Positions 4,870-20,480 of a DNA stretch of 64,000 nt are shown here, piece by piece. The stretch is from Desulfatiglans sp. GTDB lineage: Bacteria > Desulfobacterota > DSM-4660 > Desulfatiglandales > HGW-15. The first letter of the stretch is position 1, and every line of letters starts with the position of its first letter. The position numbers were made by a program, and so were the translations under genes. The notes beneath the pieces were generated by a model. The model was not told the DNA's origin. It did not search any database and saw only the letters and a program-made list of their open reading frames with translations. The stretch spans positions 29,027 through 93,026 of the forward strand of contig JAAZBV010000037.1 of assembly GCA_012513605.1 (NCBI GenBank), given 5' to 3'.

Positions 4870-6171
4870 TTACCTCATCATCCCAGGCAATAAAAGCACA
4901 ATATCCGGGAATATGGTGAGGATTACCAGCCCCAGGACTACGGCAATTAGAAATGGTATGATACCCTTGAAGATTGTATGCAGTTCAATATCACGGGCTA
5001 TCCCCTTTATCACAAACACGTTAAGACCAACAGGCGGTGTTATGGCCCCTGCCTCAAGCAGTATGACAATCATCACCCCGAACCATATGGGGTTAAAGCC
5101 TGCCTTTATAATCACAGGGTAAAAAATATTGATGGTTATGATCAGAAAAGAGAGGGAGTCCATTATGCACCCACCTACAAGGTAGATAACCATAACACAC
5201 AGTAAAACAACATAGGGTGAGGCATTAAGCCCTCGCACCCACTCTGCAAGGGCCTGGGGCAGACCGCTTATTGTAAGAAAACGGCTGAAGATCATTGCAC
5301 CCGCAACTATTAGAAGCACCATTGCTGATGTACGGGTGGTGTTTGTTATGGCGCTCTTAAAACTTGCCCAGCTTAAACTGCGCCTGATAAGACCTATCGC
5401 TATGGCCCCGGCAGCGCCTATGCCTGCTGCCTCTGTCGGGGTGAACCATCCCATTAAGAGCCCACCTATGACAAGCAGAAAAAGGAGTATCATCTCAGTT
5501 GTACCTGATAATGACCTGATCTTTTCTTTTAGATTGGTTTTTGCTGCGGGTGCACCAAGAGAAGGTTTGATAATGCACATAGTTAATATTATCCCGATAA
5601 AGAGCATAGAGAGCAGTAGACCGGGCAATATTCCGGCAACAAACAGCTTACCAATGGAAACCTCTGTCTGTATCCCATACACAATAAGCACAATACTGGG
5701 GGGGATTAGTATGCCCAGAGTACCTCCGGCTGCTACTGTTCCAGCAGCTAAAGAGAGGTCATACCTGTTCTTTTTCATTTCTGGCAGGCTTACAGTACCC
5801 ATTGTTGCGGCTGTTGCTGCGCTTGACCCGCATATGGCGGAAAATCCTGCACAGGCCCCTATTGTTGCAACAGCCAACCCCCCCGGTATAAAACCAAGCC
5901 AGGCATTGGCGGTATTATAGATCCTTTTACTTATCCCTGAATGGAAGGCTATCTCGCCCATAAAGACAAAGAGTGGAATAACCAGCATTGTATAAGAGCT
6001 AAACTGGGTATAGAAATTATCACTCAGGATAAAAAGCCCGCCATCAAATGACGTAAGGCATGCAAAGCCAAGGAACCCTGCCATGATCATGGAAAAGGCT
6101 ATGGGCATCCCCAGCAGCATGAGAAACACCATTACCAGGATACCCAGGAGGCCAATCATCTCTCCGCTCAT
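4870..6171 (-). CDS. dctM: TRAP transporter large permease (DctM family)
   Basis: Highly hydrophobic polytopic ORF. Preferred start is ATG 6171 (MSGEMIGLLGILV...), which forms an ATGA overlap with the dctQ stop. The ORF-track start at 6234 is probably an artefactual extension. Confidence 0.85.
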   Translation of the reverse strand: MSGEMIGLLGILVMVFLMLLGMPIAFSMIMAGFLGFACLTSFDGGLFILSDNFYTQFSSYTMLVIPLFVFMGEIAFHSGISKRIYNTANAWLGFIPGGLAVATIGACAGFSAICGSSAATAATMGTVSLPEMKKNRYDLSLAAGTVAAGGTLGILIPPSIVLIVYGIQTEVSIGKLFVAGILPGLLLSMLFIGIILTMCIIKPSLGAPAAKTNLKEKIRSLSGTTEMILLFLLVIGGLLMGWFTPTEAAGIGAAGAIAIGLIRRSLSWASFKSAITNTTRTSAMVLLIVAGAMIFSRFLTISGLPQALAEWVRGLNASPYVVLLCVMVIYLVGGCIMDSLSFLIITINIFYPVIIKAGFNPIWFGVMIVILLEAGAITPPVGLNVFVIKGIARDIELHTIFKGIIPFLIAVVLGLVILTIFPDIVLLLPGMMR

Positions 6172-6653
6172 TTTTCGCCTCCGGAGAGCATCCTGAGAAT
6201 GTCTGTAACAAGAACAAGGGTAAGGGCAAGGCAACCCAAAGAGACTATGGCAGCAAATGGCAATACCGGCATTCTTAATACCTCTGTCAGTTCACCTATC
6301 TCATAGACCCCTTTTGTATAAAGGATGGATTGCCATGTGATTATAAAAAAGAGTATCACACCCATGATATCCATAAGGGCCTTGATAATAAGTCCTACCG
6401 ACCCGGGAAGCCTGTCCAGTAAAATGGTTATGCGTATATGTCCCTTAACAACCTGGGTATAGGCAATAGCACATGCAATAACGAGCACACCCATCTGACT
6501 CAATATATCAACAGTGCCTTTCAAAGGAGCACCAAAAACACTTCGTCCTATAACGTTGATACATACTATTACCATAATGGCAATAACAGAGATACCTGCT
6601 ATCCAGTTGAGAAAGCGGGAAATGAAGTTTACTGTTTTTTCAAAAATAACCAA
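6168..6653 (-). CDS. dctQ: TRAP transporter small permease (DctQ family)
   Basis: 161 aa with four hydrophobic segments, lying between the DctP-like and DctM-like genes with a 4-nt overlap to dctM. Confidence 0.8.
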   Translation of the reverse strand: MVIFEKTVNFISRFLNWIAGISVIAIMVIVCINVIGRSVFGAPLKGTVDILSQMGVLVIACAIAYTQVVKGHIRITILLDRLPGSVGLIIKALMDIMGVILFFIITWQSILYTKGVYEIGELTEVLRMPVLPFAAIVSLGCLALTLVLVTDILRMLSGGEK

Positions 6654-6699
6654 GATCCGTTCCTTTCATATAGGTATAATCATTTCGCTGTTTACTAAC

Positions 6700-6776
6700 G
6701 TAGGGGCACTGCGCACCGTGCCTTTTAATCATACCCGGTACAATGCCACCACGGGCACGCTGCAGCGTGCACCTAC
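6700..6776. repeat. Inverted pair of GC-rich units (gtaggggcactgcgcaccgtgcc ... ggcacgctgcagcgtgcacctac) inside the dctP-dctQ intergenic spacer
   Basis: Read directly. The two arms are imperfect reverse complements separated by about 30 nt. Same family as the other gtagggg palindromes. Confidence 0.6.
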
Positions 6777-6818
6777 ATTCCTGACCATAGAGATATATAA
6801 AAACCCCTTAATACATGC

Positions 6819-7850
6819 CTAATAAATATTATTATACTTTTCAAGCAGCCGATTAAATTCATCAAGCCATTCCCTTGCAGGGAGCCCCCTGGCTGTAGTC
6901 TGTTCAAGCCATTCATCCATCATTGAGCTTAACAACTTCATCATCTTCGCCCTTTCTGCTGGTAAAATCTCTGTCATCTTTACCCCGTTCTCAACGGCAA
7001 ATGAGAGGCCGTCTTCTCCTGCCTTATGGGCAAAATTGCCTGCCCACTCACTGTGCTCCATCCTGATATCGTTTACTGCATTCTTAAGATAATCAGGCCA
7101 TAAATTGAACCTCTTTTCATTAACGATTGTAAACATCACAGCAGCCGGCGCCGGAAATGAGGTAATATAATCGATTACCTCATTGAACCTGAAGGGTTTT
7201 ATTATCTCGAATGTGGTGTAATTGCCCTTTATGATATTTTTCTGAAGCGCCTCATATATCTCTGATACCGGCAAAAACACAGGTGAGGCGCCAAGTTTTT
7301 CAAGGGCCTGAACACCGGTCCCGGTTGACCTTATCTCTTTTCCCCTGAAGTCATCTATTGAGTTTACAGGAAACCTGCCAAAGAATCCTCCACCTTTTTC
7401 ACCAAGGCCGTTACAACTGAATGAGATGACCTTTACCCCCGCAAATTCCGGAGGGTCAAATTTGTTATACATATCCCAGGCAATAAGAACCGGCACCATT
7501 GTATGTTTGTACGGATGTGGATAATTGAGGAGTGCCATCATGGGGAACCTTTCTGGCCTGAAGGATGATGCATTCATCCCAACGTCCGCAACACCCCTTA
7601 ATATACCCTCTATGGTGTTTTTGCCTGTAAGCAGTGTTGCATTATAGAATGGCCTCACCTTTACCCTGTTTTGGGTACGGGTCTCTATCATCTCGATCCA
7701 TTTTTCCGTTGCCCTGCCCGGTGGTGAGGTTTGTGATGTCCAGTTGGTAAAGGTGAGTACTATTTCGGGTTTTTCCGCAAGAGCGTATCCCGGATTAAAT
7801 ATGACCCCAAAAAACAAGAGTACAACAGGCAACAAAAAAATTTTACGCAT
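6819..7850 (-). CDS. dctP: TRAP transporter solute-binding protein (DctP family)
   Basis: 343 aa with signal peptide MRKIFLLPVVLLFFGVIFNPGYALA. Size and position upstream of dctQM fit a DctP-type receptor. Substrate unknown. Confidence 0.8.
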   Translation of the reverse strand: MRKIFLLPVVLLFFGVIFNPGYALAEKPEIVLTFTNWTSQTSPPGRATEKWIEMIETRTQNRVKVRPFYNATLLTGKNTIEGILRGVADVGMNASSFRPERFPMMALLNYPHPYKHTMVPVLIAWDMYNKFDPPEFAGVKVISFSCNGLGEKGGGFFGRFPVNSIDDFRGKEIRSTGTGVQALEKLGASPVFLPVSEIYEALQKNIIKGNYTTFEIIKPFRFNEVIDYITSFPAPAAVMFTIVNEKRFNLWPDYLKNAVNDIRMEHSEWAGNFAHKAGEDGLSFAVENGVKMTEILPAERAKMMKLLSSMMDEWLEQTTARGLPAREWLDEFNRLLEKYNNIY

Positions 7851-8078
7851 TTTAATTACTGATCCTCTCTGGTTATGGGCTGTGGTTATATCCTAAAAGA
7901 GAATCTGAATCAACCTGTATGAAAGGTTTTGGTCATAATCCGGGGCGCCTGAACTGATAAGATTGAATAGCTTGATAACCAGCTTTTTCCCTTGCTTTTT
8001 CAGCCTATTAGCCTTATTGATAATCTTACGTTCAATACAGACAAAATATGCTGCATTTTTTGTATAGAAGGAGTTTTC

Positions 8079-9338
8079 ATGATTACCCGAATCCAAGCAA
8101 AGAATTACAGGTGCCTTCGATATATTGATCAGAAACTTGAGCCATTCCAGCTTCTGGTTGGCGCAAATGCCACAGGTAAGACAACCTTTCTGGATGTGGT
8201 TAATTTTCTAAGTGAATTAATCTCTTCAGGTGTTGAATCATCCATCAGGAATCGCTCTACATATCCAAAAGACCTTACCTGGAACAGGGCTGGTAAGGGA
8301 TTTGAACTTGCTATCGAAGCTGCATTTCCTCAAAAACTCCGTGATCTTCTTGCACATCCAAATTATACACACATTCGTTATGAGGTCGGTATTGATATTG
8401 ATATTGATGGCGAAGGAGTTGGCATTTCTGATGAGAGAGTATGGTTAATGAAAAACTCTAATGATCATCCGATACAGCGTAAACTCTTTCCTGAAAACAT
8501 ATTTGAGCCTGAAACAATCTTATTACCTAAAAAAGGAATTCGTTCAGGAGGAAGCAGACAACTGGTTGTAAGTAAAGTAATAGGTGGAAATGACAATTTT
8601 ACAGTTGAGACATCAAAAGGTTATAGTCCATCGTGGAAGCAGTCGCCCAAGAAATCTGCACTCGGAAATCTTCCTGCTGATGAATCAAGCTTTCCTGTTT
8701 CCTCATGGCTTAGAAACTTTCTAATGCAGGAAACACAAAGATTTGTACTTAACAGCGACTTGATCAGAAGGGCAAGTCCACCTGGGCAGAGTCGCGGATT
8801 TAAACCTGATGGATCGAATCTGCCTTGGGTTATTGAACAGATAGATATAAAAAGAATCAATAATTGGGTTAAGCATTTGCAAACGGCTTTACCTGACCTG
8901 AAAGATATCCGTACCGTTTTAAGAGAGGATGATAAACACCGTTATCTTGTATTGGAATATGCAAATGATCTTGAAATTCCATCCTGGCTTGCATCCGATG
9001 GAACACTTCGGTTGCTTGCTTTAACACTTCCAGCCTATCTTCCTGAATTCAATGGTATCTATTTGATTGAAGAACCGGAAAATGGCATTCATCCAAAAGC
9101 GGCTGAAACAGTATTCCAATCTTTATCTTCAGTTTATGATGCACAGGTACTCCTTGCTACCCATTCACCTGTACTGCTGAGTCTGATAAAGCCCAAAGAT
9201 TCAAGCAAAGTCCTTTGTTTTGCTAAAAGAGATGATGGCTCAACAGATATAATATCAGGAGATCGTCATCCTAAATTAAAGGAATGGCAAGGAGAACCTA
9301 ACCTCTCTGTATATTTTGCAGGAGGTGTACTGGGATGA
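8079..9338 (+). CDS. AAA/ABC-type (AAA_21/SMC-like) ATPase, candidate defence ATPase
   Basis: Walker A GANATGKTT, Walker B/D-loop IYLIEEPENGIHP, H-loop LLATHSP, with a long insert between them. Start chosen at ATG 8079 (MITRIQAKNYRCL...), preceded by GAAGGAG. ATGA overlap with the next gene. Confidence 0.8.
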   Translation: MITRIQAKNYRCLRYIDQKLEPFQLLVGANATGKTTFLDVVNFLSELISSGVESSIRNRSTYPKDLTWNRAGKGFELAIEAAFPQKLRDLLAHPNYTHIRYEVGIDIDIDGEGVGISDERVWLMKNSNDHPIQRKLFPENIFEPETILLPKKGIRSGGSRQLVVSKVIGGNDNFTVETSKGYSPSWKQSPKKSALGNLPADESSFPVSSWLRNFLMQETQRFVLNSDLIRRASPPGQSRGFKPDGSNLPWVIEQIDIKRINNWVKHLQTALPDLKDIRTVLREDDKHRYLVLEYANDLEIPSWLASDGTLRLLALTLPAYLPEFNGIYLIEEPENGIHPKAAETVFQSLSSVYDAQVLLATHSPVLLSLIKPKDSSKVLCFAKRDDGSTDIISGDRHPKLKEWQGEPNLSVYFAGGVLG

Positions 9339-9976
9339 ATTCTGAACAATATCTGAAAGACCTGATCATAGTTGTAGCGGACAGTGAGATGGAATTTGTT
9401 ATACACTCACTTCTTGAACGATATCAGTCCCTCGGTATTCAAAAGATAGTGTTTGACATAAAAAGACATATCCAGAGAGATGCCGGGTGTCTTACGGATT
9501 GTCATAATTATCTTCGTGAAGATATACGTTATTATCGGTATAGTATGGTACTATTTGATAAGGAAGGTTGTGGCAGGGAAAAATACAGTTCAACAGAAAT
9601 TGAAGAAGAAGTAGAAAGAAGACTTTCAATAAATGGTTGGGATGAACGCTGTGCTGCAATAGTAATTGATCCTGAATTGGAAGCATGGGTGTGGAGCGAC
9701 TCTTCGGAAGTTGATAAGGTGTTTGGCTGGAATAATCGAAAACCTCCTCTGCGTGAATGGCTTAAATCAAATACCCCTTATTGGTCAAGGGAAAGGCTTA
9801 AACCTGAACGACCAAAAGAGGCCCTTCGGTCTGCCATGAAAGAAGTACGTCAGCCCTTTTCTTCCAGACTTTTTGCTGATCTGGCTCAAACAGTCAGTTT
9901 GGAACGTTGTATAGATCCATCTTTTAATAAATTAAAAATTATCCTGAAAACCTGGTTTACCCCAGTTAAACCATAG
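9335..9976 (+). CDS. Toprim-like / DUF4276-like partner protein of the ATPase (tentative)
   Basis: 213 aa. The acidic motifs on predicted strands, IIVVADSEMEF, MVLFDKEG and AIVIDPELEAWVW, resemble the E...DxD...E-EAW layout of DUF4276/RloB/OLD-Toprim partners. Translationally coupled to the ATPase. Confidence 0.5.
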   Translation: MNSEQYLKDLIIVVADSEMEFVIHSLLERYQSLGIQKIVFDIKRHIQRDAGCLTDCHNYLREDIRYYRYSMVLFDKEGCGREKYSSTEIEEEVERRLSINGWDERCAAIVIDPELEAWVWSDSSEVDKVFGWNNRKPPLREWLKSNTPYWSRERLKPERPKEALRSAMKEVRQPFSSRLFADLAQTVSLERCIDPSFNKLKIILKTWFTPVKP

Positions 9977-9980
9977 CCTT

Positions 9981-11492
9981 TTAACTAATAAACAGATCCT
10001 TTGTAGAAAAATTCGGGTCACTTGTAAGGTTAACGCCAAGGCGTCTTAAACCCGCCTCATCACCAGGTGTCGGGATATGGGTCATATGCACCTCGCAGTC
10101 CCTGAGCTCATTCAGCTTTTCCATTGCAAGCTGGGCAGCCGGGTTGTGCGTAGCGCTTATGCTTAATGCGATCAGTGTCTCAAGGAGATCAAGGTTCAGG
10201 TTCTTTTCATTCAGCACCCTTGTTTTAAGGTTCATGACTGACTCTGTTATATTGGGTGAGAGAATCTTAATCTTGTCAGGTATCTCTGCAAGATGTTTTA
10301 TCGCATTAAGTATCAGGCCTGATGCAGCATGAAGATAGGTGGAATTGCTGCCTGTCACAATTGTGCCGTCCTTTAACTCAATGGCAGCGCCGCAGAATAT
10401 GCCCTCATTCCCCTTGTTCTTTTTCCCGGCCTCAACAGCAGCCTCATGGGCCGGTTTTACAACATTTCTGTATTCAGGGGTGATATTAAAATCCTCCATA
10501 AGGAGTTCTGCCCGCTCAACAGTATCTTTGCCTGTAAGCCCCATTGCGTATTCACACTGATACCTGAAGAACCGCCTTACTATCTCCTGCCTGGATGCCT
10601 CCCTGGTTGCCTCATCATCAGTGATTGCAAAACCGACACGGTTTACACCCATGTCTGTGGGGGAATGGTACGGAGATTCACCCCCGCTTATCTTTTTCAA
10701 AATCCTTTTCAGGACCGGGAAAACCTCCACATCGCGGTTATAGTTAACCGCCTTTTCGTTATATGTCTCAAGGTGGAAGGGGTCTATCATGTTAAAATCC
10801 TTGATGTCGGCAGTAGCCGCCTCATATGCGATATTAACAGGGTGATTAAGAGGCAGGTTCCAGATGGGGAATGTCTCGAATTTCGCATACCCTGCGTTTA
10901 TCCCCCTTTTGTGTTCATGATAAACCTGTGTAAGACAGGTGGCGAGTTTTCCGCTTCCAGGGCCAGGGCCGGTCACGATTACAAGGGGCTTTTTTGTCTC
11001 TATAAAGGCATTTGCCCCATAACCTTCGTCACTTACAATAAGGTCAAGATCAGTCGGGTAACCTTTGGTAAACTGGTGGGTAAACACATTAATACCGCGT
11101 CTTTCAAGCTTGTTTTTAAACTGCCTTGCAGATGGCTGCCCATTATATCGTGTTATAACCACTGCCAGCACATCAATCCCCCAGCTCCTTAAGTCATCTA
11201 TGAGTTTCAGGGCCTCTGAGTCGTATGTAATGCCAAAATCGGCCCTCATCTTTTTCCTTTCTATATCACCAGCATATATGCAAAGGATCAGGTCGGCCTG
11301 GTCTTTAAGCTTCTGAAGAAGCCTCATTTTAATATTTGGATCATATCCCGGCAGCACCCTTGATGCGTGATAGTCATAAAGAAGTTTTCCGCCAAATTCC
11401 AGATAAAGCTTATCATTGAATTTTTTTGCCCGCTCAATGATCTCTGTGGACTGTTCTGTAATATATTTTTCATTGTCAAAAGCTACTTTCAC
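9981..11492 (-). CDS. DUF1846 (UPF0371) family protein
   Basis: 503 aa. The N-terminus FDNEKYITEQSTEIIERAKKFNDKLYLEFGGKLLYDYHASRVLPGYDPNIKMRLL matches my memory of the UPF0371 family. Confidence 0.7.
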   Translation of the reverse strand: MKVAFDNEKYITEQSTEIIERAKKFNDKLYLEFGGKLLYDYHASRVLPGYDPNIKMRLLQKLKDQADLILCIYAGDIERKKMRADFGITYDSEALKLIDDLRSWGIDVLAVVITRYNGQPSARQFKNKLERRGINVFTHQFTKGYPTDLDLIVSDEGYGANAFIETKKPLVIVTGPGPGSGKLATCLTQVYHEHKRGINAGYAKFETFPIWNLPLNHPVNIAYEAATADIKDFNMIDPFHLETYNEKAVNYNRDVEVFPVLKRILKKISGGESPYHSPTDMGVNRVGFAITDDEATREASRQEIVRRFFRYQCEYAMGLTGKDTVERAELLMEDFNITPEYRNVVKPAHEAAVEAGKKNKGNEGIFCGAAIELKDGTIVTGSNSTYLHAASGLILNAIKHLAEIPDKIKILSPNITESVMNLKTRVLNEKNLNLDLLETLIALSISATHNPAAQLAMEKLNELRDCEVHMTHIPTPGDEAGLRRLGVNLTSDPNFSTKDLFIS

Positions 11493-11827
11493 CTTGATCC
11501 CGCTCCTTTTAAGTAAAGATATTTATCTCTCAATCATGCATGAACTAAAAATAAGTAATAATTAAATACCAGCAGGTTTATAATCTTTAATAATATTTTT
11601 TATCAATATATTTTTTTAGGGTAGTAGTAAATATTTGTGAAGTGAATGGAGGGATGGGATTTTCAGGTTGGGTTAAGCGAAGCAACCCAACGATTTTTCG
11701 GTTCAAAAAATGCCTCATCCATTGTTTTTAAGCGACCATTTCCTTTTTTCACATATTGTTAATAAACAGTTGCTTTACACCTTCCATAATTGTACAATCC
11801 AATAGTACAATTAAGCAGGAGATTAAT

Positions 11828-12058
11828 ATGAAAACAGTAGCTGTAAGTGAACTGAGAGATAATTTAATGACTTTTATAAAAAAGGTAAAGTCAGGGGAAA
11901 ATTTTATTGTAACATCAAGGGGCCATGAAGTAGCTAAACTTGTACCTGTAGAAAATAAAAAACAGATGGCAAAAGAAAGGCTTAAAGAGCTTCAAAAGAC
12001 TGCCTATGTAGGAGATGTGCTTTCCTCTGTTGATGAGGAGTGGGAGGCTTTAAAATGA
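11828..12058 (+). CDS. Type II antitoxin, Phd/YefM family
   Basis: MKTVAVSELRDNLMTFIKKVKSGENFIVTSRGHEVAKLVPV is a typical Phd/YefM N-terminus. AGGAG lies 7 nt upstream of ATG 11828. ATGA overlap with the PIN gene. Confidence 0.85.
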   Translation: MKTVAVSELRDNLMTFIKKVKSGENFIVTSRGHEVAKLVPVENKKQMAKERLKELQKTAYVGDVLSSVDEEWEALK

Positions 12059-12450
12059 TTGTTGCCGATACCCATATTATAATCTGGGAGGCATTATCTC
12101 CTGAAAAAATATCAAAAAAGGCAAAGGCTGCAATTATGGAGGCTAATGAAAATGGTGGGATTATTTTCTGTGATATATCACTATGGGAAATTACCATGTT
12201 GATGAATCGAAACAGGGTAAAGGTAGATGCCTCATACAAAGAATTCATAAATCTGTTACTCAGTTCTAATAATTACGTTTTACAGGGCATTGATCCCGAT
12301 ATAGCTGATCTATCAACAAAGATATTTAATAACACGGAAAATGATCCAGCCGATAAACTGATAGCCGCCACAGCAGTTATCAAAAAAGCCAGCCTCGTAA
12401 CAGCAGACCGGACAATGCGATCTTCATCTGAAGTTGCTACTATATGGTAG
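12055..12450 (+). CDS. vapC: PIN-domain toxin (VapC-like ribonuclease)
   Basis: MIVADTHIIIWEAL... (first acidic residue of the PIN fold) and a C-terminal DPADKLIAATAV...LVTADR, typical of PIN toxins. Confidence 0.8.
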   Translation: MIVADTHIIIWEALSPEKISKKAKAAIMEANENGGIIFCDISLWEITMLMNRNRVKVDASYKEFINLLLSSNNYVLQGIDPDIADLSTKIFNNTENDPADKLIAATAVIKKASLVTADRTMRSSSEVATIW

Positions 12451-12478
12451 GTTGTGCTATGCGAAGAAACCCAATTTT

Positions 12479-13067
12479 TTAATGGCAGTATTGATCATAA
12501 TTCAAATTAATTTCTGTTATTGCAGTATCTTTGTATTTTTCGCAAGGATAAATATCAATGATTTCAAATTTTAAAATTACTGTTTCTTTATTACTATTTA
12601 CAGTATCAATGAGGAATGATTGTAGTTGGTAGGTATCTTTTAACTCAAGAATGTATTGCGAATTATTGTTTACATATAATTTAATTGTCTTTACCCTTGA
12701 GTTCTCTTTCAATGGACTCACAGATACCATAATCGGTCTTTCCTTCAACCCAAGCTATATTAAATTTCAGATCACATACATTTTCCGGTCTGTATGTTAT
12801 TCCACTATTTGTTGTTTTTAATGAAGAAGAAGCTTTTGCATTTATTGTGTTACCGCAACAATACCAGCTACAACCCTGATAATCGATTTCGTTGAGGTCT
12901 TTTTCATTTATTGGGAATTCCTGCATTATCTCCAATTTATATTCTTTATCAAGCAGCTGATGAGGTGTTAGGCTTGGATAAATAATTTTTAGATTTTCAC
13001 TAGAATATCCTTCTTTTGGTATTAAAAAGATGAAAAGAAAGATTAGAATAGTTTTTATTTTATTCAT
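12479..13067 (-). pseudogene. Secreted beta-sandwich (discoidin/NADase-type glycan-binding-like) protein split by a frameshift
   Basis: ORFs 12681..13094 and 12479..12748 overlap in different frames. The first has signal peptide MNKIKTILIFLFIFLIP and ends ...NIAWVEGKTDYGICESIE. The second continues ...ENSRVKTIKLYVNN...FEIIDIYPCEKYKDTAITEINL. The two read as halves of one domain. Confidence 0.45.
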
Positions 13068-13077
13068 AGATGGGTTA

Positions 13078-13344
13078 CTAAAGCTGCTGTGCAAATTTTT
13101 TATTTACTGAGGGATGATGATTAATGCCTAATAAACCATCAATAGAGATGTCTTCATCAAGAAGGGGCCAATGGATTCCATACCCGGAAGGAGAAATTAC
13201 ATATGAATTCAATTCTTCATCGGAGGCATCTTTAAGAACAGAAGATATCTCACTCAAAGGGAAGCTTCTATCCTTTCCATCTATTTTTATTAATAGATTA
13301 TCACCCTCAAACTTTATATTTTCTATTTTATGATACTTGCTCAT
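13078..13344 (-). CDS. DUF2442 domain protein
   Basis: 88 aa. The C-terminal GYGIHWPLLDEDISIDGLL is the DUF2442 signature as I recall it. ATGA overlap with the upstream DUF4160 gene. Confidence 0.75.
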   Translation of the reverse strand: MSKYHKIENIKFEGDNLLIKIDGKDRSFPLSEISSVLKDASDEELNSYVISPSGYGIHWPLLDEDISIDGLLGINHHPSVNKKFAQQL

Positions 13345-13598
13345 TTATTAAGCCTCCGTTGGAACTCTCCCCATTGCTCTTCTATATATTCAAAATGATC
13401 AAATATGATTTTTCTTATTTGCCTTTGGTCATTTGGAGACATATTATACGAAAATTCTTCATTAATATCAAAATGCTCTTTATCAAGCCAATATTTACAT
13501 TCCATATCGCCTTTTCTACAATGAATATGGATAGGTTCATTTCCCTCATTCGCATAGAAGAAAAGTCGCCAGCCTAAAATAGTAAGTATTGTTGGCAT
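13341..13598 (-). CDS. DUF4160 domain protein
   Basis: Start taken at ATG 13598 (MPTILTILGWRLFFYANEGNEPIHIHCRKGDMECKYWLD), the typical DUF4160 N-terminus. The ORF-track start at 13673 is an upstream extension. Confidence 0.75.
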   Translation of the reverse strand: MPTILTILGWRLFFYANEGNEPIHIHCRKGDMECKYWLDKEHFDINEEFSYNMSPNDQRQIRKIIFDHFEYIEEQWGEFQRRLNK

Positions 13599-13763
13599 AA
13601 TAATAGCCTTGTTTTCTATATCATATAATAATAAATTCAAGAATTCCGGCGATCTCGATATTTCCACTAACATCTAAAAGATGATCCGGATATTCACAAT
13701 AACATATAGAATTTTCAAACAGTTTCATGTTGAAGAATTGGAATAATAGCTACATTCAATATG

Positions 13764-13803
13764 GTAAACCGTCATGCCCGCGAAGGTTGGCATGACGGTT
13801 TAC
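13764..13803. repeat. Perfect 15-bp-stem hairpin gtaaaccgtcatgcc-cgcgaaggtt-ggcatgacggtttac
   Basis: Arms verified by eye as exact reverse complements. It lies 19 nt downstream of the stop of the small NTF2-like gene (minus strand). No T-run follows, so it is REP-like rather than a classical terminator. Confidence 0.6.
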
Positions 13804-13821
13804 TAATCTAATAATACTTCT

Positions 13822-14574
13822 CTATACCGACTTTACCAGCCTGTCAGGGCCAAATGGTTCTGCCGGAAACACCTTTGAAAATATGGGTATAGAGATTGGC
13901 TTTGCATATGACTGACCAGGTTTATAATCTGCCTTTGCAAAGGTCTTGTATTCAAGCCTCTCTATCTTCCATCCCTTGATATCTTTTACATAAGACACCT
14001 CATATACACCAGCTTCCCACCATTTTCTGATACCTTCACCCTGAAGTCGTGCCATTTTTACAAGCGTCGAATCTGAATCAATTGGCGCACCGACCTGTAT
14101 GGAATAGGTGAATATGGCCTTTGCTGATCTCTGATCAGGGGATATCTCTACCCTATCCTGCTCAGGTTTAAAATCAATCCCTGGTGCATGATTTATTTTT
14201 CTACCGGTCATCCCGGAGGCAAAACAGTTACAGAAGAGACGTTTTATACCGGAAGTGCCCTTAAAGAGCCCTCCATTAAAAACAACCTCTGCATTGTCAG
14301 TGAACATGGCTGGTATCTCACTGTACCTTCCTTTATCCAGCAGCTCTTCATATTGTTTATGAAGCACATTGATAATTTTTTCATTTTCAAGTATAGTTAT
14401 CTGTTTTGCAAGATCGTCTATATTTGTTTTTTTATCACTGCTGAACAGGGTCTTTGCATAACCCGGTACAGTCGCAGCAGCAACCGCAGACATACCGGCC
14501 CCGACCTTCCAAATAAAGGAGCGGCGGCCTCTGTCAGCCTGCATATCGTCTGTTTGAGACTTTAATATAGCCAT
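13822..14574 (-). CDS. Tat-signal NTF2/SnoaL-like protein, small partner of cassette A
   Basis: Start at ATG 14574, 1 nt after the large gene's TAA, with AAAGGAG 6 nt upstream. MAILKSQTDDMQADRGRRSFIWKVGAGMSAVAAATVPGYA is a twin-arginine signal (RRSFIWK). The mature part has an NTF2-like pattern (YEELLDKGRY...FTDNAEVVFNGG). Confidence 0.7.
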   Translation of the reverse strand: MAILKSQTDDMQADRGRRSFIWKVGAGMSAVAAATVPGYAKTLFSSDKKTNIDDLAKQITILENEKIINVLHKQYEELLDKGRYSEIPAMFTDNAEVVFNGGLFKGTSGIKRLFCNCFASGMTGRKINHAPGIDFKPEQDRVEISPDQRSAKAIFTYSIQVGAPIDSDSTLVKMARLQGEGIRKWWEAGVYEVSYVKDIKGWKIERLEYKTFAKADYKPGQSYAKPISIPIFSKVFPAEPFGPDRLVKSV

Positions 14575-14575
14575 A

Positions 14576-16357
14576 TTAAACTCCTTTCTTTTTCTTTGGG
14601 CCATAAAACTCCCTGATATTAAAGCAACCGATATGACGCCCGAGCGCCCCTACAACACCCAGGTTAACCCCAGTCGCTCCGCCTGAAAAACCAAAACCGC
14701 AGTCATGGGTAACCTTGGTATTGATCAGTTCAATCATCTGGGCGCCATTACAGGCCTCCTCATTCTGACAGAACAAATAGACACCCTCACGAAGTTTTAC
14801 ATATATACAGGGAGAACACCACTGGGCGCCCATTGTCTGGTTTGCAGTAAAGATTGTCCATGACATTGAATGGGGAGAGGTATAAAGATGCATGGAGGTC
14901 ATCTGGTCAGAGTATGACCATGAAAATGCATGACCTACCAGCTCATCTGTAAATTCATGGCGCACATACTGGGGGGGCTCAAGACCTTCCATCTCGCAGA
15001 CGCCAAAAATGGCCCTGTATGTTGTCTCATTGCCGTAATACTTTGTGCCCATATGTGAATGTATGCATGTGGTGAGACCGTTTGTAAGGTCAACAGCCAT
15101 CTTGACAGATGCACGGGGCTTGCTGTCTGTAAGCATATGAGCAAACCATGCAAGGTTATCATCCCCTTCATAGACCCGGCAAGGCTCCTCATGCCATTTA
15201 TTTTCACCCTCTTCCATATACCTGAGTTTATATTTTTCAGGAAACTCATAATGGCGCACAGGCCCACCATTGTCATAACGAAGTATAAACTTTTTCCCGA
15301 CCAGGATATCAGAATATGGCATATTGTTTATGGCCATCATCTGAGGCGCTGCACCCTCTGTGCCTCCAAATTTTATCGTATTTTTCAGGGCTGCCTCATG
15401 TACCTCTTCATCAGTCATGTATTTGAAGGTCCTTGCAGGCCTGTATGTCATCCTCTGCCATTTCCCAGGGATTGTAGGGTCACCAGGGGCCTGGTAAACC
15501 ATGCCGCTCTTGCCATGCTCATCAAAGGGTTCAAGAAAGGCAAGCTGACCCACAACCTTGCCTTCACCCCTGAACATATAGTATTCCAGTTCATCCTTCT
15601 CATTAAATCCAAGGCGAACACCAGCCTGTGTACATTCAAACAGATCACATACAAAGGATGTGAACATGCCGGAAAATTCGCACTCTGTCTTGTCATGAAT
15701 AAAGATGTGGTGATTCACACGTACATAGTCCGAAGGAGCGACATAGCTAAGGTCATCTGCCTGGCGGGTAAGATCAACAAAGTTTGTATTGGCAACAGAG
15801 GCATATAACTCCAGCACTTCATGACCAGTATCCTGCTTCCAGTACAACCCCTTGCCCTCCAATCTGTTTGTAAGATGATGAAGCTCTTTCGGGGCCTCCT
15901 GCCCTGCAACCTCAACATAACCGAAATATAACTGACGCTGAACCTCCCTGTCATCTACGACTATCGGGTCTCCGCCAAGGGTCGGCTCTGTTCTGCCTGT
16001 GGAGAGTCCGACTTCAATAACTGTTACAAGATTAGTATCCTGATCAATATATACATTATATCCCCTCTGATCTTCAGGCATCATATGAGAGAAGAAAATC
16101 ATCTGCCTGAGTGTGAGAGCGCCGTATCCCGCCTTGATCTTTTTCCCGCCATTCTCAGAGAATGTCAGCCTGTTTTTGTCATCAAACTTGTATTCAAGCA
16201 CAGGGCCATTCTGGGTGATGATCTTGATAGATTTGCCCTTAAGCACATCCGATAGATCGGATTTACTTTTTGGTCCGGCCTCGGTTGCCTTGAGGGCCTT
16301 TCCTATCTGATCTTTCGTTAATTTTGTATACTTGAATCGATGCATCGGAATATTCAT
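14576..16357 (-). CDS. 593-aa signal-less protein with four lipocalin/MoaF/PAD-like repeats, large partner of cassette A
   Basis: AAGGAGAG RBS before ATG 16357. L-x-G-K/H motifs at residues 39, 166, 352 and 473 are each followed by alternating beta-strand-like segments. No signal peptide or TM segment. Paralog of 18669..20480. Confidence 0.6.
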   Translation of the reverse strand: MNIPMHRFKYTKLTKDQIGKALKATEAGPKSKSDLSDVLKGKSIKIITQNGPVLEYKFDDKNRLTFSENGGKKIKAGYGALTLRQMIFFSHMMPEDQRGYNVYIDQDTNLVTVIEVGLSTGRTEPTLGGDPIVVDDREVQRQLYFGYVEVAGQEAPKELHHLTNRLEGKGLYWKQDTGHEVLELYASVANTNFVDLTRQADDLSYVAPSDYVRVNHHIFIHDKTECEFSGMFTSFVCDLFECTQAGVRLGFNEKDELEYYMFRGEGKVVGQLAFLEPFDEHGKSGMVYQAPGDPTIPGKWQRMTYRPARTFKYMTDEEVHEAALKNTIKFGGTEGAAPQMMAINNMPYSDILVGKKFILRYDNGGPVRHYEFPEKYKLRYMEEGENKWHEEPCRVYEGDDNLAWFAHMLTDSKPRASVKMAVDLTNGLTTCIHSHMGTKYYGNETTYRAIFGVCEMEGLEPPQYVRHEFTDELVGHAFSWSYSDQMTSMHLYTSPHSMSWTIFTANQTMGAQWCSPCIYVKLREGVYLFCQNEEACNGAQMIELINTKVTHDCGFGFSGGATGVNLGVVGALGRHIGCFNIREFYGPKKKKGV

Positions 16358-16449: not shown

Positions 16450-17598
16450 CTACTTTTCCCCTGACATCAAATTGACTATGCTGAAATATGCCTTTTTGGG
16501 CCTCATTTCACGGTCAAAGAGCAGGGGATAGTCTGTTCTCCCCGGTACAGGGAAATTATTTTTCCAGGATATGCCGTCATGCAGCCCCCAGAATGTGACC
16601 CTGCTGACCTTATCTTTATGCCTGTTAAAGATGGTGAAGATATCACTGTATCTCTTTGCCAGTTCGTCAGCGACTGATTCAGGAAGACCATCCTTATATG
16701 GATTCATCTCCTGATTATTTTCATGCCTTATACCGATATCGGCTGAGGGTGTATTCGTCCAGGGGCTGGGCAGTACAGAGACATCCAGCTCTGTAAACAT
16801 GACCTTAACACCCAGCTCTGAAAAATCCCTTATAGTGTTTTCAATCTCGATCAGTTCAGGGAATTTCATGTCCCAGTGCGCCTGAACGCCTACTGCATCT
16901 ATCCTTAACCCCTTTTCCTTTAGTTTTTTAACTATCCTGACTGCCCCTGCACGCTTTTCAGGTATGACAAGGTTGTAGTCATTATAATAGAGTTCAGCAT
17001 CCGGGTCTGCCATGCGGGCATATTCAAATGCCTTTTCTATAAACTCATCACCGGCGATTTTATAAAAACCAGATTGCCTCATGGTGCCATCTTCATTTAA
17101 TGCCTCATTCACCACATCCCATCCATGCACCTTACCCTTGTACCTTCCTGCAACAGTAAAGATATGATCCCTGATCCTGTTAAAAAGGGTCTCCTTATCA
17201 ACCTGGTCATTAGAACCCTCTTTTGTAAATACCCCTTGCCCGAGCTGGCTGTGCCATACCAGTGTGTGTCCTATCAGCTTTACATTATTTGCCTGTGCAA
17301 ATTCTGCAATCTTGTCTGCCCTTTCAAACCTGTATTGATCAAGGGCAGGATGCAATGAGCCCCACTTCATCTCATTTTCAGGTGTGACGGCGCTAAAATG
17401 GCTCTTTATCAGCTCAGAGGAAACCGGGTTATCAAGAAGCCCGGGAAAGATCGCTGCGCCAATAAGAAAATTATCCTTGTAATAATCCTTCAGCCCTTTC
17501 TCTATATCACCGCTATCCGAGGGTTTCAGATTGCAGGATAAAAAAAGTAAAAGTAAAAGAGGGCTAATGTACAGGATTACATGTTTAAGACTTTTCAT
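16450..17598 (-). CDS. Endo-1,4-beta-xylanase, glycoside hydrolase family 10, lipoprotein
   Basis: TPENEMKWG, GHTLVWHSQ, WDVVNEAL (acid/base Glu) and MFTELDVS (nucleophile Glu). The N-terminus MKSLKHVILYISPLLLLLFLSC has a lipobox. The alternative start at 17628 would add 10 aa. Confidence 0.9.
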   Translation of the reverse strand: MKSLKHVILYISPLLLLLFLSCNLKPSDSGDIEKGLKDYYKDNFLIGAAIFPGLLDNPVSSELIKSHFSAVTPENEMKWGSLHPALDQYRFERADKIAEFAQANNVKLIGHTLVWHSQLGQGVFTKEGSNDQVDKETLFNRIRDHIFTVAGRYKGKVHGWDVVNEALNEDGTMRQSGFYKIAGDEFIEKAFEYARMADPDAELYYNDYNLVIPEKRAGAVRIVKKLKEKGLRIDAVGVQAHWDMKFPELIEIENTIRDFSELGVKVMFTELDVSVLPSPWTNTPSADIGIRHENNQEMNPYKDGLPESVADELAKRYSDIFTIFNRHKDKVSRVTFWGLHDGISWKNNFPVPGRTDYPLLFDREMRPKKAYFSIVNLMSGEK

Positions 17599-17720
17599 TC
17601 TGTCTGATTTTAATATGAATCTTATCATCCTTCATAACCTGCCTTTTATATTTATTGTGATAACTGCCTATCATCCATAAAAAATATTCAGGGACAGTGA
17701 ATAAATTTGTTTTCATCCAA

Positions 17721-17893: not shown

Positions 17894-18667
17894 TTAAGCC
17901 TGCACAGGAACCAGAATCTTATCCGGGCCATTCGGCTCCCCAGGGTAAACCTTTGAAAAGGGAACTGATGATACAGGCATGGAGTATGTCTTACCCGGCC
18001 TGTAATCTGTCTTTGCCACGGCCTGATATTCCAGCCTCTTTATTTTCCAAGCGCCGTTTAATGCATCCTTTATACATGAGATATGGCATGTCCCACCTTC
18101 CCACCACCTCATGACCCCTCCGCCCTGAAGACGCGCCATACTTACCAGAACCGAATCGGAAGCCAGAGGGGCGCCGATCTGCATGGAATATGAAAATTGT
18201 GCCTTTGCTGAACCACGATCACCTGATACCTGCACCTGATCCTGATCAGACTCACAGGCATTCTCAAACCCTGGCGCAGGTGAAATCCTTTTTCCTGTCA
18301 TACCTGACCTGAAGAGACCGCAATAAAGACGTCTTAGACCGGTCTCTTTTCCTGTATACACACCACTGTTAAAGATTACCTCGCCATCATTTGAAAAGAG
18401 TTCTACCAGGGTTTCATATGCACCCCTGTCCAGTAAAGATTCATAGGTGTGATAAAGGTCATGGACTGATTTTTCATCTTCAAAAATCCTGACCCTGTTA
18501 TTTAAACGCTCCATCTCTGATTCCATGCCCTTATCTTTTTTAAAGAGAGGCACTGCGACAGCCGGAACAGCAGTGGCCAGCAGTGCTGACACAGCAGCCC
18601 CAGCCTTCCAGATGAATGACCTGCGGCCGGCATTCGGCTGATCAATGGATTTTGATGTGGTATCCAT
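17894..18667 (-). CDS. Tat-signal NTF2/SnoaL-like protein, small partner of cassette B
   Basis: ATG 18667 lies 1 nt after the large gene's TAA, with AAAGGAG upstream. MDTTSKSIDQPNAGRRSFIWKAGAAVSALLATAVPAVA is a Tat signal. Collinear with the cassette A small protein. Confidence 0.7.
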   Translation of the reverse strand: MDTTSKSIDQPNAGRRSFIWKAGAAVSALLATAVPAVAVPLFKKDKGMESEMERLNNRVRIFEDEKSVHDLYHTYESLLDRGAYETLVELFSNDGEVIFNSGVYTGKETGLRRLYCGLFRSGMTGKRISPAPGFENACESDQDQVQVSGDRGSAKAQFSYSMQIGAPLASDSVLVSMARLQGGGVMRWWEGGTCHISCIKDALNGAWKIKRLEYQAVAKTDYRPGKTYSMPVSSVPFSKVYPGEPNGPDKILVPVQA

Positions 18668-18668
18668 A

Positions 18669-20480
18669 TTATGCTCCTTTCCTTTTTGCGTTAGGTCCAA
18701 AATACTCTTTGACTTTATATTGCCCGAGGTCACGCGCAATAGCGCCGATTACGCCCAGGTTGATCCCGTCTCTGCCGCCGTGAAAGCCAAACCCATCCGC
18801 ATGCATGGTCTTATTATTTTCAATAATACATGTCTCAGCGCCATTACATGCCTCTTCAACAAGGTCAAATATGTATACCCCGTCCCTGAGTTTCACATAA
18901 ATGGCAGGCGCACACCACTGTATACCTAGTGTCTGGTCCTGCATGTAGATTGTCCATGCCGAGGAATGGGGGGTGGTATAAAGATGCATTGAGGTCATAT
19001 TGTCAGAATATGTCCTTGTAAATCCGCAGCCTACCAGCTCATCCGTAAACTCATGGCGCATGTATTTTGCAGACTGGACGCCTTCCATCTCTGCAACACC
19101 AAAGAATGCCTCATATACGACTTCATCACCGTAATAGGGAGAGCCGACCTTTGAATAAATGCATGTAGTAAGGCCGTTTGTAAGATCGAGGGCGATCTTT
19201 ACGCTTGTTGGCACTTTAATCCCGGTAAGCATATGTGCAAAGAAGAGCAGATTTTCATCAGCCTCAAATGCCCTGTAGGTCTCCTTCTGCCATTTTGAAT
19301 CACCCTCATTTTTCCATTCAAGGTTATAGGCGTCTGATACCCTGTAATTGAAAACAGGGCCGCGGTCAAACCGGAGAGTAAACTCTTTTCCTTTGAGAAG
19401 GTCACTGTATGGAAGTGTGTTGCCTCCCATCATGCCGGCCTGGGCCTGTGGGGTGTCTGGGTTATCTGTAAAGGTCACAGTCTTTGTTTCAGCAATCTTG
19501 TTTATCTCGTCCTGTGAGATATATTTAAGATTTCTGGCTGGGCGGTAAATAATCCTATCGCCGCCTTTGGGCACTTTTGGTGCAGGCTGATCAGCAGCGC
19601 CGGGTTTAGGAGCCCCAAAGCCCATATTTATCTTTTCACCGTGTTCATCAAATGGCTGAAGGGCTGTAAGGTGACCCACAACCTTGCCTTTGCCTCTGAA
19701 CATATAATATTCCAGCTCGTCTCTTTCATTAAAGCCAAGCCTCATACCTATCTGTGTTTCCGTGAACAGGTCAACAGCATACATGGTCAGTATGCCAGAA
19801 AATTCACACTCGGTTCTGTCATAGATAAACATGTTATCATTAACAAGTATATAATCTGATGTTGCACAATAGCTCAAATCATCCACATGCCTTGTCAGCT
19901 CAACAAAGTTCGTGGTGCATACAGAGGCATAAAATTCAAGGGTTTCAATGCCTGTATCCTGTTTCCAGTGCATGCCCTTACCCTGTATCCTGTTTGTAAG
20001 TCGATGTAGTTTTTCCGGTGCGGCTTTGCCAGTCACATCTACATAACCGTAAAATATCTGGCGCACTGCCTCCCTGTCATCCAGTACTATTTCGCCGCCC
20101 ATGCCTCCCTGCTTTATTCCGCTTGAAAGAGAGACATCAAATACCGTAACAAGATTGGTATCAAGGTCGTAAAACACATTATAACCCCTCTGTTCATTCG
20201 GGATCATATGAGAGAATAAAACCATCTGCTTGAGTGTAAGCGCACCATAACCGGTCTTAATCTTTTTTCCGCCGTTTTCAGAGATGATAAGCTCCTTTTT
20301 ATCCCTGAAACTGTACTCAAGGACAGGGCCATCCTTTGTAATAATCTTTAAGGACTTGCCCGAAAGAATGTCTGAAAATTCAGAAACGCATTTGGGCCCG
20401 GTTTCAGCAGCCTTGAGTTTTTTACCTATTTCATCCTTTGTCAGTTTTGTATACTTGAAACGGTGCATTGGTATGTTCAT
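18669..20480 (-). CDS. 603-aa signal-less four-repeat lipocalin/MoaF/PAD-like protein, large partner of cassette B
   Basis: First 16 residues are identical to the cassette A large protein (MNIPMHRFKYTKLTKD) and it is collinear throughout. AGGAGGAG RBS. Only 43 nt downstream of the GPH transporter stop. Confidence 0.6.
   Translation of the reverse strand: MNIPMHRFKYTKLTKDEIGKKLKAAETGPKCVSEFSDILSGKSLKIITKDGPVLEYSFRDKKELIISENGGKKIKTGYGALTLKQMVLFSHMIPNEQRGYNVFYDLDTNLVTVFDVSLSSGIKQGGMGGEIVLDDREAVRQIFYGYVDVTGKAAPEKLHRLTNRIQGKGMHWKQDTGIETLEFYASVCTTNFVELTRHVDDLSYCATSDYILVNDNMFIYDRTECEFSGILTMYAVDLFTETQIGMRLGFNERDELEYYMFRGKGKVVGHLTALQPFDEHGEKINMGFGAPKPGAADQPAPKVPKGGDRIIYRPARNLKYISQDEINKIAETKTVTFTDNPDTPQAQAGMMGGNTLPYSDLLKGKEFTLRFDRGPVFNYRVSDAYNLEWKNEGDSKWQKETYRAFEADENLLFFAHMLTGIKVPTSVKIALDLTNGLTTCIYSKVGSPYYGDEVVYEAFFGVAEMEGVQSAKYMRHEFTDELVGCGFTRTYSDNMTSMHLYTTPHSSAWTIYMQDQTLGIQWCAPAIYVKLRDGVYIFDLVEEACNGAETCIIENNKTMHADGFGFHGGRDGINLGVIGAIARDLGQYKVKEYFGPNAKRKGA

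Follow-up and report, generated by a model that had tools for sequence, protein, structure and literature searches.

The DNA analysed here, referred to below as the window, is a stretch of 64,000 bp from an uncultured Desulfatiglans-like lineage (Desulfatiglans sp., GenBank assembly GCA_012513605.1, contig JAAZBV010000037.1, positions 29,027 to 93,026). It contains two coupled plus-strand genes, encoding an ABC ATPase and a smaller partner protein, which an earlier note had read as a candidate anti-phage pair of an ATPase and a Toprim protein. We conclude that the two genes very probably form a stand-alone pair of the MAD3/MAD4 family, similar to Hma-embedded candidate 01 (HEC-01). MAD3 and MAD4 are components of the methylation-associated defense system (MADS) of Pseudomonas aeruginosa, which acts against phages on the basis of methylation and comprises eight genes; of these, mad2-4 and mad6-8 are needed for defence (Maestri et al. 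2024, bioRxiv 10.1101/2023.03.30.534895). HEC-01, included in PADLOC-DB v2, consists of an ABC ATPase and a TOPRIM protein and was described in Hma systems (Payne et al. 2024, bioRxiv 10.1101/2024.01.29.577857).

The ATPase and partner genes and their products

Both open reading frames (ORFs), with products of 419 and 213 amino acids, and their ATGA overlap were confirmed as previously described (Table 1). The same holds for their position as an islet between the minus-strand dctP and DUF1846 genes, both of which were identified by domain matches. The stop codons of the partner gene and the DUF1846 gene are separated by a gap of 4 nt. An AGGAGG sequence is located approximately 9 nt upstream of the ATG of the partner gene and is followed by the ATGA stop/start overlap (9335-9338); in the sequence, this is the classic layout of translational coupling. 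The longest ORF of the ATPase gene begins at a TTG at 7992, a start that is disfavoured by the Shine-Dalgarno sequence and the N-termini of the homologues. The ATG at 8079 is preferred, because the Shine-Dalgarno sequence precedes it and the homologues likewise start with MIT(R).

Table 1. Features of the locus, with positions in the window. Conservation was counted over 58 family members for the ATPase and over 50 sequences, including two MADS MAD4 proteins, for the partner.
Feature	Position	Strand	Description
DctP (TRAP transporter) gene	6819-7850	minus	PF03480, 2.2e-34; DctPQM at 4870-7850
Promoter-like conserved block	7991-8060	plus	TTTTCA-16-GATAAT at 7997-8024
Shine-Dalgarno GAAGGAG of ATPase gene	8066-8072	plus	Read from the sequence; 7 nt upstream of ATG 8079
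ATPase gene	8079-9338	plus	419 aa; MAD3-family / HEC-01A-like ABC ATPase
Walker A GANATGKTT (aa 28-36)	8160-8186	plus	G28, N30, G33 and K34 invariant (58/58)
ABC signature-like LASDGTLR (aa 304-311)	8988-9011	plus	S306, G308, T309 and L310 invariant (58/58)
Walker B / D-loop IYLIEEPENGIHP (aa 327-339)	9057-9095	plus	E331, E332, P333, E334, H338 and P339 invariant (58/58)
H-loop LLATHSP (aa 358-364)	9150-9170	plus	H362 invariant (58/58)
Coupling site, AGGAGG in ATPase 3' end and ATGA stop/start overlap	9320-9338	plus	Read from the sequence
Partner gene	9335-9976	plus	213 aa; MAD4-family Toprim-like protein (DUF4276-fringe), predicted nuclease effector
Motif 1 IIVVADSEMEF (aa 11-21)	9365-9397	plus	D16 49/50, E20 40/50; D16 in beta1-alpha1 loop
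Motif 2 MVLFDKEG (aa 71-78)	9545-9568	plus	D75 50/50; E or D at position 77 in 46/50; end of beta3
Motif 3 IDPELEAWVW (aa 111-120)	9665-9694	plus	P113, E114, L115, E116, W118 and W120 50/50; just after beta4
Motif 4 KPERPK (aa 156-161)	9800-9817	plus	K156 and K161 49/50, P157 and P160 50/50; helical C-terminal part; candidate catalytic lysine
DUF1846 gene	9981-11492	minus	1.2e-169

With a total G + C content of 0.398, the pair is below its flanks (0.451 and 0.454) and ranks at the 14th percentile among windows of the same size. The G + C content of the third codon positions (GC3) was 0.28-0.29, against 0.45-0.48 for the two flanking genes and glnA. The pair had been described as more AT-rich than its surroundings, and it is: modestly in total G + C content and clearly in GC3. 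No tRNA gene and no convincing direct or inverted repeats flanking the pair were found at the locus as marks of insertion, and promoter and terminator scans of the locus gave results at or below chance.

The closest relative of the pair was found in another uncultured Desulfatiglans, a metagenome-assembled genome (locus L006; partner 85% and ATPase approximately 79% identical). Compared with this relative, dN/dS was approximately 0.07 for both genes, with dS near saturation. Such strong purifying selection indicates that both ORFs are real genes and not chance reading frames. The DNA shared by the window and L006 is confined to the two genes and a 71-nt block that is 77% identical (window 7991-8060, L006 5767-5837), and the upstream neighbourhoods differ. 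Judged by its sequence, the block may act as a promoter. In L006 it lies approximately 2.9 kb upstream of the ATPase gene, before a small ORF, a Band_7/SPFH gene and a gene for a 312-aa protein. The promoter may move together with the pair, with genes inserted in L006; otherwise, the window may have lost such genes.

The ATPase matched the Pfam families AAA_21 (8.9e-25) and AAA_15 (5.7e-18), and it aligned end to end with the NCBIfam equivalog model for MAD3 (NF047739; 2.5e-144, 481.6 bits against a cut-off of 420). A match to the RecF N-terminal domain was also present (2e-7). It matched 129 PADLOC models, these matches being read by E-value and bit score and not by PADLOC's own thresholds. 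The best was HEC-01A (PDLC04184; 3.4e-42, residues 1-376 against 1-400 of the 464 profile positions), and others were AriA (2.9e-28), mad3 (3.1e-26), AbiLi (8.3e-21), Old, GajA and PtuA. An AlphaFold2 model (pLDDT 88.1) was compared with known structures by Foldseek and was closest to PtuA (1.3e-12) and the class 1 OLD of Thermus (6.5e-11), followed by GajA, Rad50 and SMC heads. The ABC fold was thereby confirmed for the predicted structure, and with the Pfam matches these neighbours bear out the earlier description as an ABC/AAA_21-type ATPase.

In most ABC ATPases the Walker B motif carries Asp-Glu. In MAD3/HEC-01A-like ATPases a glutamate takes the position of the aspartate, and the resulting Glu-Glu (hhhhEEPE) was present throughout this family (58/58), the window ATPase included.

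The partner aligned end to end with the NCBIfam equivalog model for MAD4 (NF047734; 9.1e-65, 218.6 bits against a cut-off of 160). A check of both proteins against PADLOC models had been suggested in the earlier note; beside HEC-01A for the ATPase, it gave mad4 (2.1e-7) and HEC-01B (PDLC04210; 1.3e-5, 23 bits) for the partner. The sole Pfam match of the partner was DUF4276 (PF14103; 21.3 bits, 3.5e-4, residues 18-200 against 6-187 of 192). This family was matched at E <= 0.01 by 33 of 84 partner homologues (best 9.1e-8), and no other Pfam family was matched. On these profile comparisons the partner is a fringe relative of DUF4276, not a formal member.

The AlphaFold2 model of the partner (pLDDT 92.3, pTM 0.87) has strands at residues 8-14, 40-44, 67-75 and 106-111 that alternate with helices, and its C-terminal half is helical. 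In a Foldseek search of PDB, ranks one and two were taken by the C-terminal region of Xanthomonas OLD (Toprim plus helical part), with a probability of 0.97-0.99. These matches are weak (E 4e-3 to 6e-3, TM-score 0.38-0.43), and the next ones were generic alpha/beta folds. A profile of the partner family found no meaningful relative among PDB sequences (best E 0.11, aRF1), and a fold search of BFVD gave weak matches only, including an RloB-like phage protein (E 0.034). Together, the DUF4276 fringe match and the OLD C-terminal region as top fold match are consistent with a Toprim-derived, DUF4276-like partner, as had been proposed.

All motifs that had been quoted for the two proteins were found in the translations. 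In addition to the residues in Table 1, D49 (50/50) and G51 (49/50) of the partner are conserved, and G51 could be the Toprim glycine after beta2. In the OLD of Burkholderia (BpOLD), E400 and D455/D457 form metal site A and E404 and T506/E508 form metal site B; T506 and E508 are located on the first helix after beta4, and K562 is located in the helical domain (Schiltz 2019, PMC6755086). From sequence and model, D16/E20 of the partner (i, i+4, after beta1) would correspond to E400/E404, and D75-x-E77 at the end of beta3 to D455/D457. Likewise, E114-x-E116, just after beta4, may match the metal B ligands T506/E508, and K156 or K161 in the helical part may match K562. The first motif had been noted for its deviation (ADSEME) from the usual EG-x-TE start, as a possible sign of a distinct variant. 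The deviation is confirmed, but it is a trait of the whole MAD4 family, MADS-embedded MAD4 included, and not specific to this locus.

Relatives in other genomes and the rest of the window

As a reference for MADS we used the operon on a plasmid of Piscinibacter gummiphilus (L004), of which all eight proteins pass the NCBIfam models MAD1-MAD8; this was the one operon with which other MADS genes were sought by tblastn. In the 64-kb window, MAD1-8 of L004 gave matches only to MAD3 (33% identity) and MAD4 (31%). MAD1, MAD2, MAD5, MAD6, MAD7 and MAD8 were not found in the window (E <= 0.01 for MAD6, MAD7 and MAD8).

To survey the family, one genome per species was scanned (185,579 genomes). Partner relatives were present at 443 loci, in approximately 0.24% of the species genomes and scattered across phyla. 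The best 80 of these 443 loci were taken with 10-kb flanks. At all 80, from approximately 18 phyla, a MAD3-like ATPase gene was located directly upstream of the partner gene, and at none of the 80 were MAD1, MAD2, MAD5, MAD6, MAD7 or MAD8 matched by tblastn (E <= 1e-4). The hosts belong to Planctomycetota, Nitrospinota, Chloroflexota, Acidobacteriota, Bacillota, Desulfobacterota and large sulfur Gammaproteobacteria, and also to Omnitrophota, Latescibacterota, Myxococcota, Bacteroidota, Actinomycetes and other lineages; one is a Bathyarchaeia archaeon. The stand-alone clade is common in uncultured lineages of anaerobic sediment and groundwater (Desulfobacterota, Planctomycetota, Chloroflexota, Acidobacteriota, Bathyarchaeia). 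Public records name these ATPases 'ATP-binding protein' or 'predicted ATPase'.

The surroundings of the pair vary. It was found between isocitrate dehydrogenase and SDR genes (L002), between tRNA synthetase genes and a deoxyribosyltransferase gene (L090), and behind an Mrr-type endonuclease gene with otherwise housekeeping neighbours (L003). At L087/L088 (2668-7856) it comes immediately after genes for an SNF2/PLD helicase and an MmeI-type methyltransferase, a setting that resembles Hma or restriction-modification (RM) systems. The lineage of L087/L088 is widespread in metagenomes, with its ATPase (P0307) indexed in 242 blocks of the collection. Its partner gene is intact by tblastn (7257-7856) and uncalled in public gene tables.

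The 120 best database matches to the Piscinibacter MAD3 were all at least 72% identical to it. This MADS-type MAD3 was found in Dickeya, Variovorax, Pseudomonas, Burkholderia, Accumulibacter and others, where newer NCBI records name it MAD3. A second full MADS operon was present on a mobile element (L086). A blastn search with the Piscinibacter MAD3-MAD4 genes in 5,426 E. coli genomes found nothing. Identity among the stand-alone proteins was 36-95% for the ATPase and 34-93% for the partner, and between stand-alone and MADS-type proteins 27-42% and 29-44%, respectively. In a neighbour-joining tree the MADS-type proteins formed one long-branched clade; rooted on a partner-less relative, which is a weak rooting, the stand-alone set was not monophyletic in this tree. 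The PADLOC models also separate the two kinds of ATPase by sequence. The MADS MAD3 of L004 scored 247 bits with mad3 and 112 bits with HEC-01A, whereas the stand-alone ATPases of the window, L090 and L087 scored 91-108 and 143-144 bits, respectively.

The pair in the window is, on these sequence comparisons, a member of the MAD3/MAD4 family in the broad sense, but neither a MADS system nor part of the MADS-type subclade. The NCBIfam equivalog names would over-assign such pairs to MADS, since the 80 closest relatives are uniformly stand-alone and distant from MADS-embedded MAD3/MAD4; as a consequence of these models, 'methylation-associated defense system MAD3/MAD4' names would be given in genomes free of MADS.

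Another type of relative was observed on plasmid pGSUB1 of Geoalkalibacter subterraneus (L005, 15001-16224). This MAD3-like ATPase (34% identity) is without a MAD4-like partner; the genes that follow it encode an Eco57I-type methylase, a NERD nuclease and a further DNA methyltransferase. The same ATPase family seems to be paired differently here, in a way similar to HEC-02.

Among the ORFs of at least 120 aa that were scanned in the window, matches were found to TRAP transporter, DUF1846, GlnE-like, GlnA, PlsB and IOR proteins, and further to ADP-forming acetate-CoA ligase, DEAD helicase, MoaF-domain, GH10 and ABC transporter proteins. By these matches, the other scanned ORFs belong to housekeeping or unrelated families. 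A type II RM pair is encoded on the minus strand at 52911-54775, 43 kb from the MAD3/MAD4-like pair, and holds the only DNA methyltransferase in the window. This enzyme (53801-54775) is an MboIIA-like N6-adenine methyltransferase with a DPPY motif (9.9e-42 to 1G60), and its gene overlaps by 4 nt with a gene resembling a type II endonuclease (6EKR, 1.5e-8). Judged by sequence similarity, this MboIIA-like pair is a second defence system in the window, unrelated to the ATPase and its partner.

Beyond the DUF1846 gene lies an islet (11493-13821) with a G + C content of 0.327, against 0.425 for the window. It contains a Phd/YefM-PIN toxin-antitoxin (TA) pair (11756-12450) and a DUF2442-DUF4160 pair (13078-13673), and it looks like a horizontally acquired accessory patch. 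Two overlapping minus-strand ORFs in it (12681-13094 and 12479-12748) match positions 1-56 and 77-145 of NADase_transloc (PF25302); they are probably one gene split by a frameshift, or by a sequencing error. Next to the islet, a cassette of SnoaL_4 and a MoaF-domain protein of approximately 600 aa is present twice on the minus strand (13822-16357 and 17894-20480). The two copies flank a GH10 xylanase gene (16450-17628), with an MFS_2 sugar transporter gene adjoining, and this region may be a polysaccharide-use cluster. A 1262-aa protein (22230-26018, minus strand) consists of a GlnD-like N-terminus (PII uridylyltransferase C-terminal) and a GlnE adenylyltransferase body, which is an unusual joining of two nitrogen-signalling enzymes; its gene adjoins glnA (26285-27709).

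Proposed function and alternative explanations

With moderate confidence we propose that the pair is an autonomous anti-phage ATPase-nuclease module, working as follows. The ATPase and its partner would be made together from one transcript by translational coupling. The ABC ATPase would dimerise on ATP and act as sensor and gatekeeper, restraining the nuclease until an infection cue makes it license or release the Toprim-like partner. The partner would then cut nucleic acid by two-metal catalysis, with D16/E20, D75/E77 and E114/E116 as putative ligands and K156 or K161 as lysine. This would halt phage replication, probably by abortive infection with sacrifice of the cell, on the lines of OLD, Gabija and PARIS; Septu is also an analogue. 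The stand-alone form could not use methylation to distinguish self from non-self, because it has no methyltransferase. Its autonomy is suggested by its distribution, and complex formation, nuclease activity, trigger, substrate and anti-phage phenotype are all predictions for this pair.

Several observations weigh against this proposal. The DUF4276 match of the partner is below the gathering threshold of that family (21.3 against 30.2 bits), and the other stand-alone partners barely reach the PADLOC mad4 and HEC-01B models. An aspartate (D16) is present at the canonical position of the Toprim glutamate, and E20 is replaced by V or A in MADS-type MAD4; because of these two differences the residue mapping to OLD is offered as a hypothesis. 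In MADS, MAD3 and MAD4 depend on the remaining six genes, and such genes could be located elsewhere in the genome, beyond the 64-kb window. In E. coli, the HEC-01 representative of Payne et al. was not protective (bioRxiv 10.1101/2024.01.29.577857). No relative was found on the IMG/VR viral contigs that were scanned, and only 2 of 72,556 plasmids had a tblastn match, namely the complete MADS operon L004 and the partner-less ATPase L005.

Neither are known defence genes enriched beside the pair. The two nearest ORFs on each side were taken at 34 loci by crude greedy ORF calling, giving 125 proteins, and no Pfam or PADLOC family occurred more than twice among them; the 25 most frequent families were listed, so that single defence genes may be missed. 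Those listed include two methyltransferases and two Cas5/6 proteins, and the majority of the neighbours are metabolic. The earlier note had asked whether homologous pairs map to defence islands, and on this count they do not. It had also set down what would speak against its reading, namely a partner lacking a Toprim-like fold in profile or structure searches and a pair not enriched near known defence genes: the lack of enrichment was indeed observed, whereas the lack of a Toprim-like fold was not.

A wider reading, to which we give slightly less than even confidence, is that the stand-alone pairs represent an old, phylum-spanning, autonomous and methylation-free abortive-infection system, one branch of which was captured by proteobacterial MADS as a toxic effector cassette. 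It is partly supported by the weakly rooted tree, in which MADS forms one clade on a long branch and the stand-alone proteins do not group as a monophyletic set. If this is true, the NCBIfam equivalog names mislabel several hundred stand-alone pairs as MADS components, the trigger is something other than unmethylated DNA, and the family is a distinct Toprim variant with Asp for the catalytic Glu and a D-x-E motif.

Alternatively, the pair may be an accessory effector that needs unlinked partners elsewhere in the genome, such as a methyltransferase or RM system or MADS/Hma-type genes. MAD3 and MAD4 are required alongside MAD2 and MAD5-8 in MADS, HEC-01 was discovered embedded in Hma systems, and the pairs at L087/L088 and L003 follow a helicase with an MmeI-type methyltransferase and an Mrr-type endonuclease, respectively. 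The window itself holds a type II RM system, but this lies at a distance of 43 kb and belongs to an unrelated type, and most relatives of the pair are found among housekeeping genes with no methyltransferase nearby. Moreover, E. coli B was reportedly protected from one or more of the phages T4, T5 and T7 by a HEC-01 representative from a cold seep, cloned alone (bioRxiv 10.1101/2024.09.26.614923). We regard a dependence on unlinked partners as unlikely.

The tight coupling of the two genes, their GC3 below that of host genes, their patchy distribution and a position that varies even between close relatives would also fit a selfish TA-like addiction module, in which a Toprim toxin is restrained by the ATPase. 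Classical TA pairs are located 1.8 kb away (11756-13673), and Pfam annotates AAA_21 as a putative AbiEii/type IV TA domain. Yet the pairs are nearly absent from plasmids and viral contigs, where addiction modules thrive, and all the catalytic elements of ABC ATPases that serve as sensors in defence are present in the ATPase. We consider a purely selfish module quite unlikely, and TA and abortive-infection functions are not mutually exclusive.

Very unlikely, in our view, is a function outside defence, in which the pair would process DNA or RNA as a housekeeping task, for instance in repair or maturation in the manner of RecF, Rad50 or RNase M5. It would agree with the mostly housekeeping neighbours and the absence of defence-island enrichment, with the resemblance of the ATPase to Rad50/SMC heads and the RecF N-terminal domain, and with the inclusion of RNase M5 among Toprim domains (PMC6755086). 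Against it, the pair is limited to 443 loci in scattered phyla, occupies different positions even in relatives of 79-85% identity and has an atypical GC3, and the closest families of the ATPase are all defence ATPases. Finally, it is highly improbable that the pair is the surviving MAD3-MAD4 core of a decayed MADS operon, now functionless or being lost: both proteins do pass the NCBIfam MAD3 and MAD4 cut-offs and MADS operons vary in completeness (Maestri et al., bioRxiv 10.1101/2023.03.30.534895), but all 80 best relatives share the two-gene layout without other MADS genes, tblastn saw no MADS pseudogene fragments beside them, the catalytic motifs are invariant, both genes are under purifying selection, and the stand-alone proteins are distant from the tight MADS-embedded clade and told apart from it by the PADLOC models.

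For the reading as an autonomous defence pair, it should be said that NCBIfam 2026, PADLOC-DB v2 and papers already contain its architecture, the two protein families and the hypothesis of a defence function. Pairs of an ABC ATPase and a Toprim protein are a familiar theme in defence and will not surprise specialists. The locus adds one more stand-alone member, and the stand-alone clade provides a test case for what HEC-01-type pairs sense and whether they act autonomously. MAD3-MAD4, which also exists alone, has the look of a portable ATPase-nuclease cassette; this supports MAD3-MAD4 as the effector arm of MADS and fits the idea of defence systems embedded in defence systems.

Comparison with known systems

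The pair shares with MADS the MAD3 and MAD4 models, whose cut-offs are passed, the gene order, the tight coupling, the ATPase motifs and the MAD4 invariants D16, D49, D75, E114, E116, K156 and K161. It differs from MADS in the absence of MAD1, MAD2 (methyltransferase), MAD5 (S subunit), MAD6 (kinase), MAD7 and MAD8 from the window and from all 80 relatives, in the low identity of its proteins to the MADS-embedded ones (31-33%), and in having no methylation-based arm for self/non-self discrimination. In the MacSyFinder model of the MADS authors, the MAD6 kinase, MAD7 and MAD8 are mandatory, and MAD3 and MAD4 count as 'accessory', since their detection is not reliable in every system (bioRxiv 10.1101/2023.03.30.534895). 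Losing mad5 kills the cell, except where mad2 or mad3 has been removed too (bioRxiv 10.1101/2023.03.30.534895), which places MAD3 on a toxic effector arm.

HEC-01 has the same two-gene composition of an ABC ATPase and a TOPRIM partner, and HEC-01A is the best PADLOC model for the ATPase over nearly its full length. HEC-01B shares the OLD metal site, and HEC candidates in general occur outside Hma loci too and are not enriched near other defences (bioRxiv 10.1101/2024.01.29.577857). The latter is also true of the pair in the window, which differs from HEC-01 in that it is not embedded in any defence system and in that its HEC-01B match is weak (1.3e-5). The stand-alone clade is poorly covered by the HEC-01B models, since its partners match them weakly or not at all.

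With OLD, the pair has in common an ABC ATPase and a Toprim-plus-helical nuclease region, with acidic pairs and a lysine spaced as in BpOLD. The OLD family includes class 1 from Thermus scotoductus (6P74) and class 2 from Burkholderia and Xanthomonas (6NK8/6NJV) (Schiltz et al. 2019). OLD is one fused polypeptide, whereas the pair consists of two ORFs overlapping by 4 nt; its partner has Asp for the invariant Toprim Glu and D-x-E for DxD, with undetectable sequence similarity to OLD and a weak fold match (TM-score approximately 0.4). PARIS (AriA/AriB) likewise combines an ABC ATPase sensor with a separate Toprim nuclease effector, and AriA matches the ATPase (2.9e-28). This match is weaker than that of HEC-01A, the partner has no AriB or DUF4435 match in Pfam or PADLOC, and the IMG/VR viral contigs scanned carry no relative of the pair. 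Similarly, AbiLi of AbiL matches the ATPase (8.3e-21), and AbiLii does not match the partner. Membership of PARIS, AbiL or OLD proper was rejected, as in each case a defining feature fails (AriB/DUF4435, AbiLii and the fusion, respectively).

DUF4276/Mad4 has been classed as a Toprim domain with a catalytic E and DxD, and Mad4 has been named a DUF4276 homologue (PMC12065111). Canonical DUF4276 keeps the Toprim glutamate (PMC12065111), in the EG-x-TE start given by the earlier note, whereas the partner family of the window has A-D-x-x-x-E. A DUF4276-like Toprim effector together with an ABC ATPase is also found in Menshen (NsnB/NsnC-DUF4276) and RloB-type systems, and NsnB weakly matches the MADS MAD3. 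The pair differs from Menshen in that no NsnA or ParB-like component is located beside it and the partner stays under the DUF4276 cut-off. The core of the earlier reading, a probable defence pair of an ATPase and a Toprim protein in the design of OLD, AbiL and PARIS, is supported by these comparisons, but the family to which the pair belongs already has a name, MAD3/MAD4, and is HEC-01-like.

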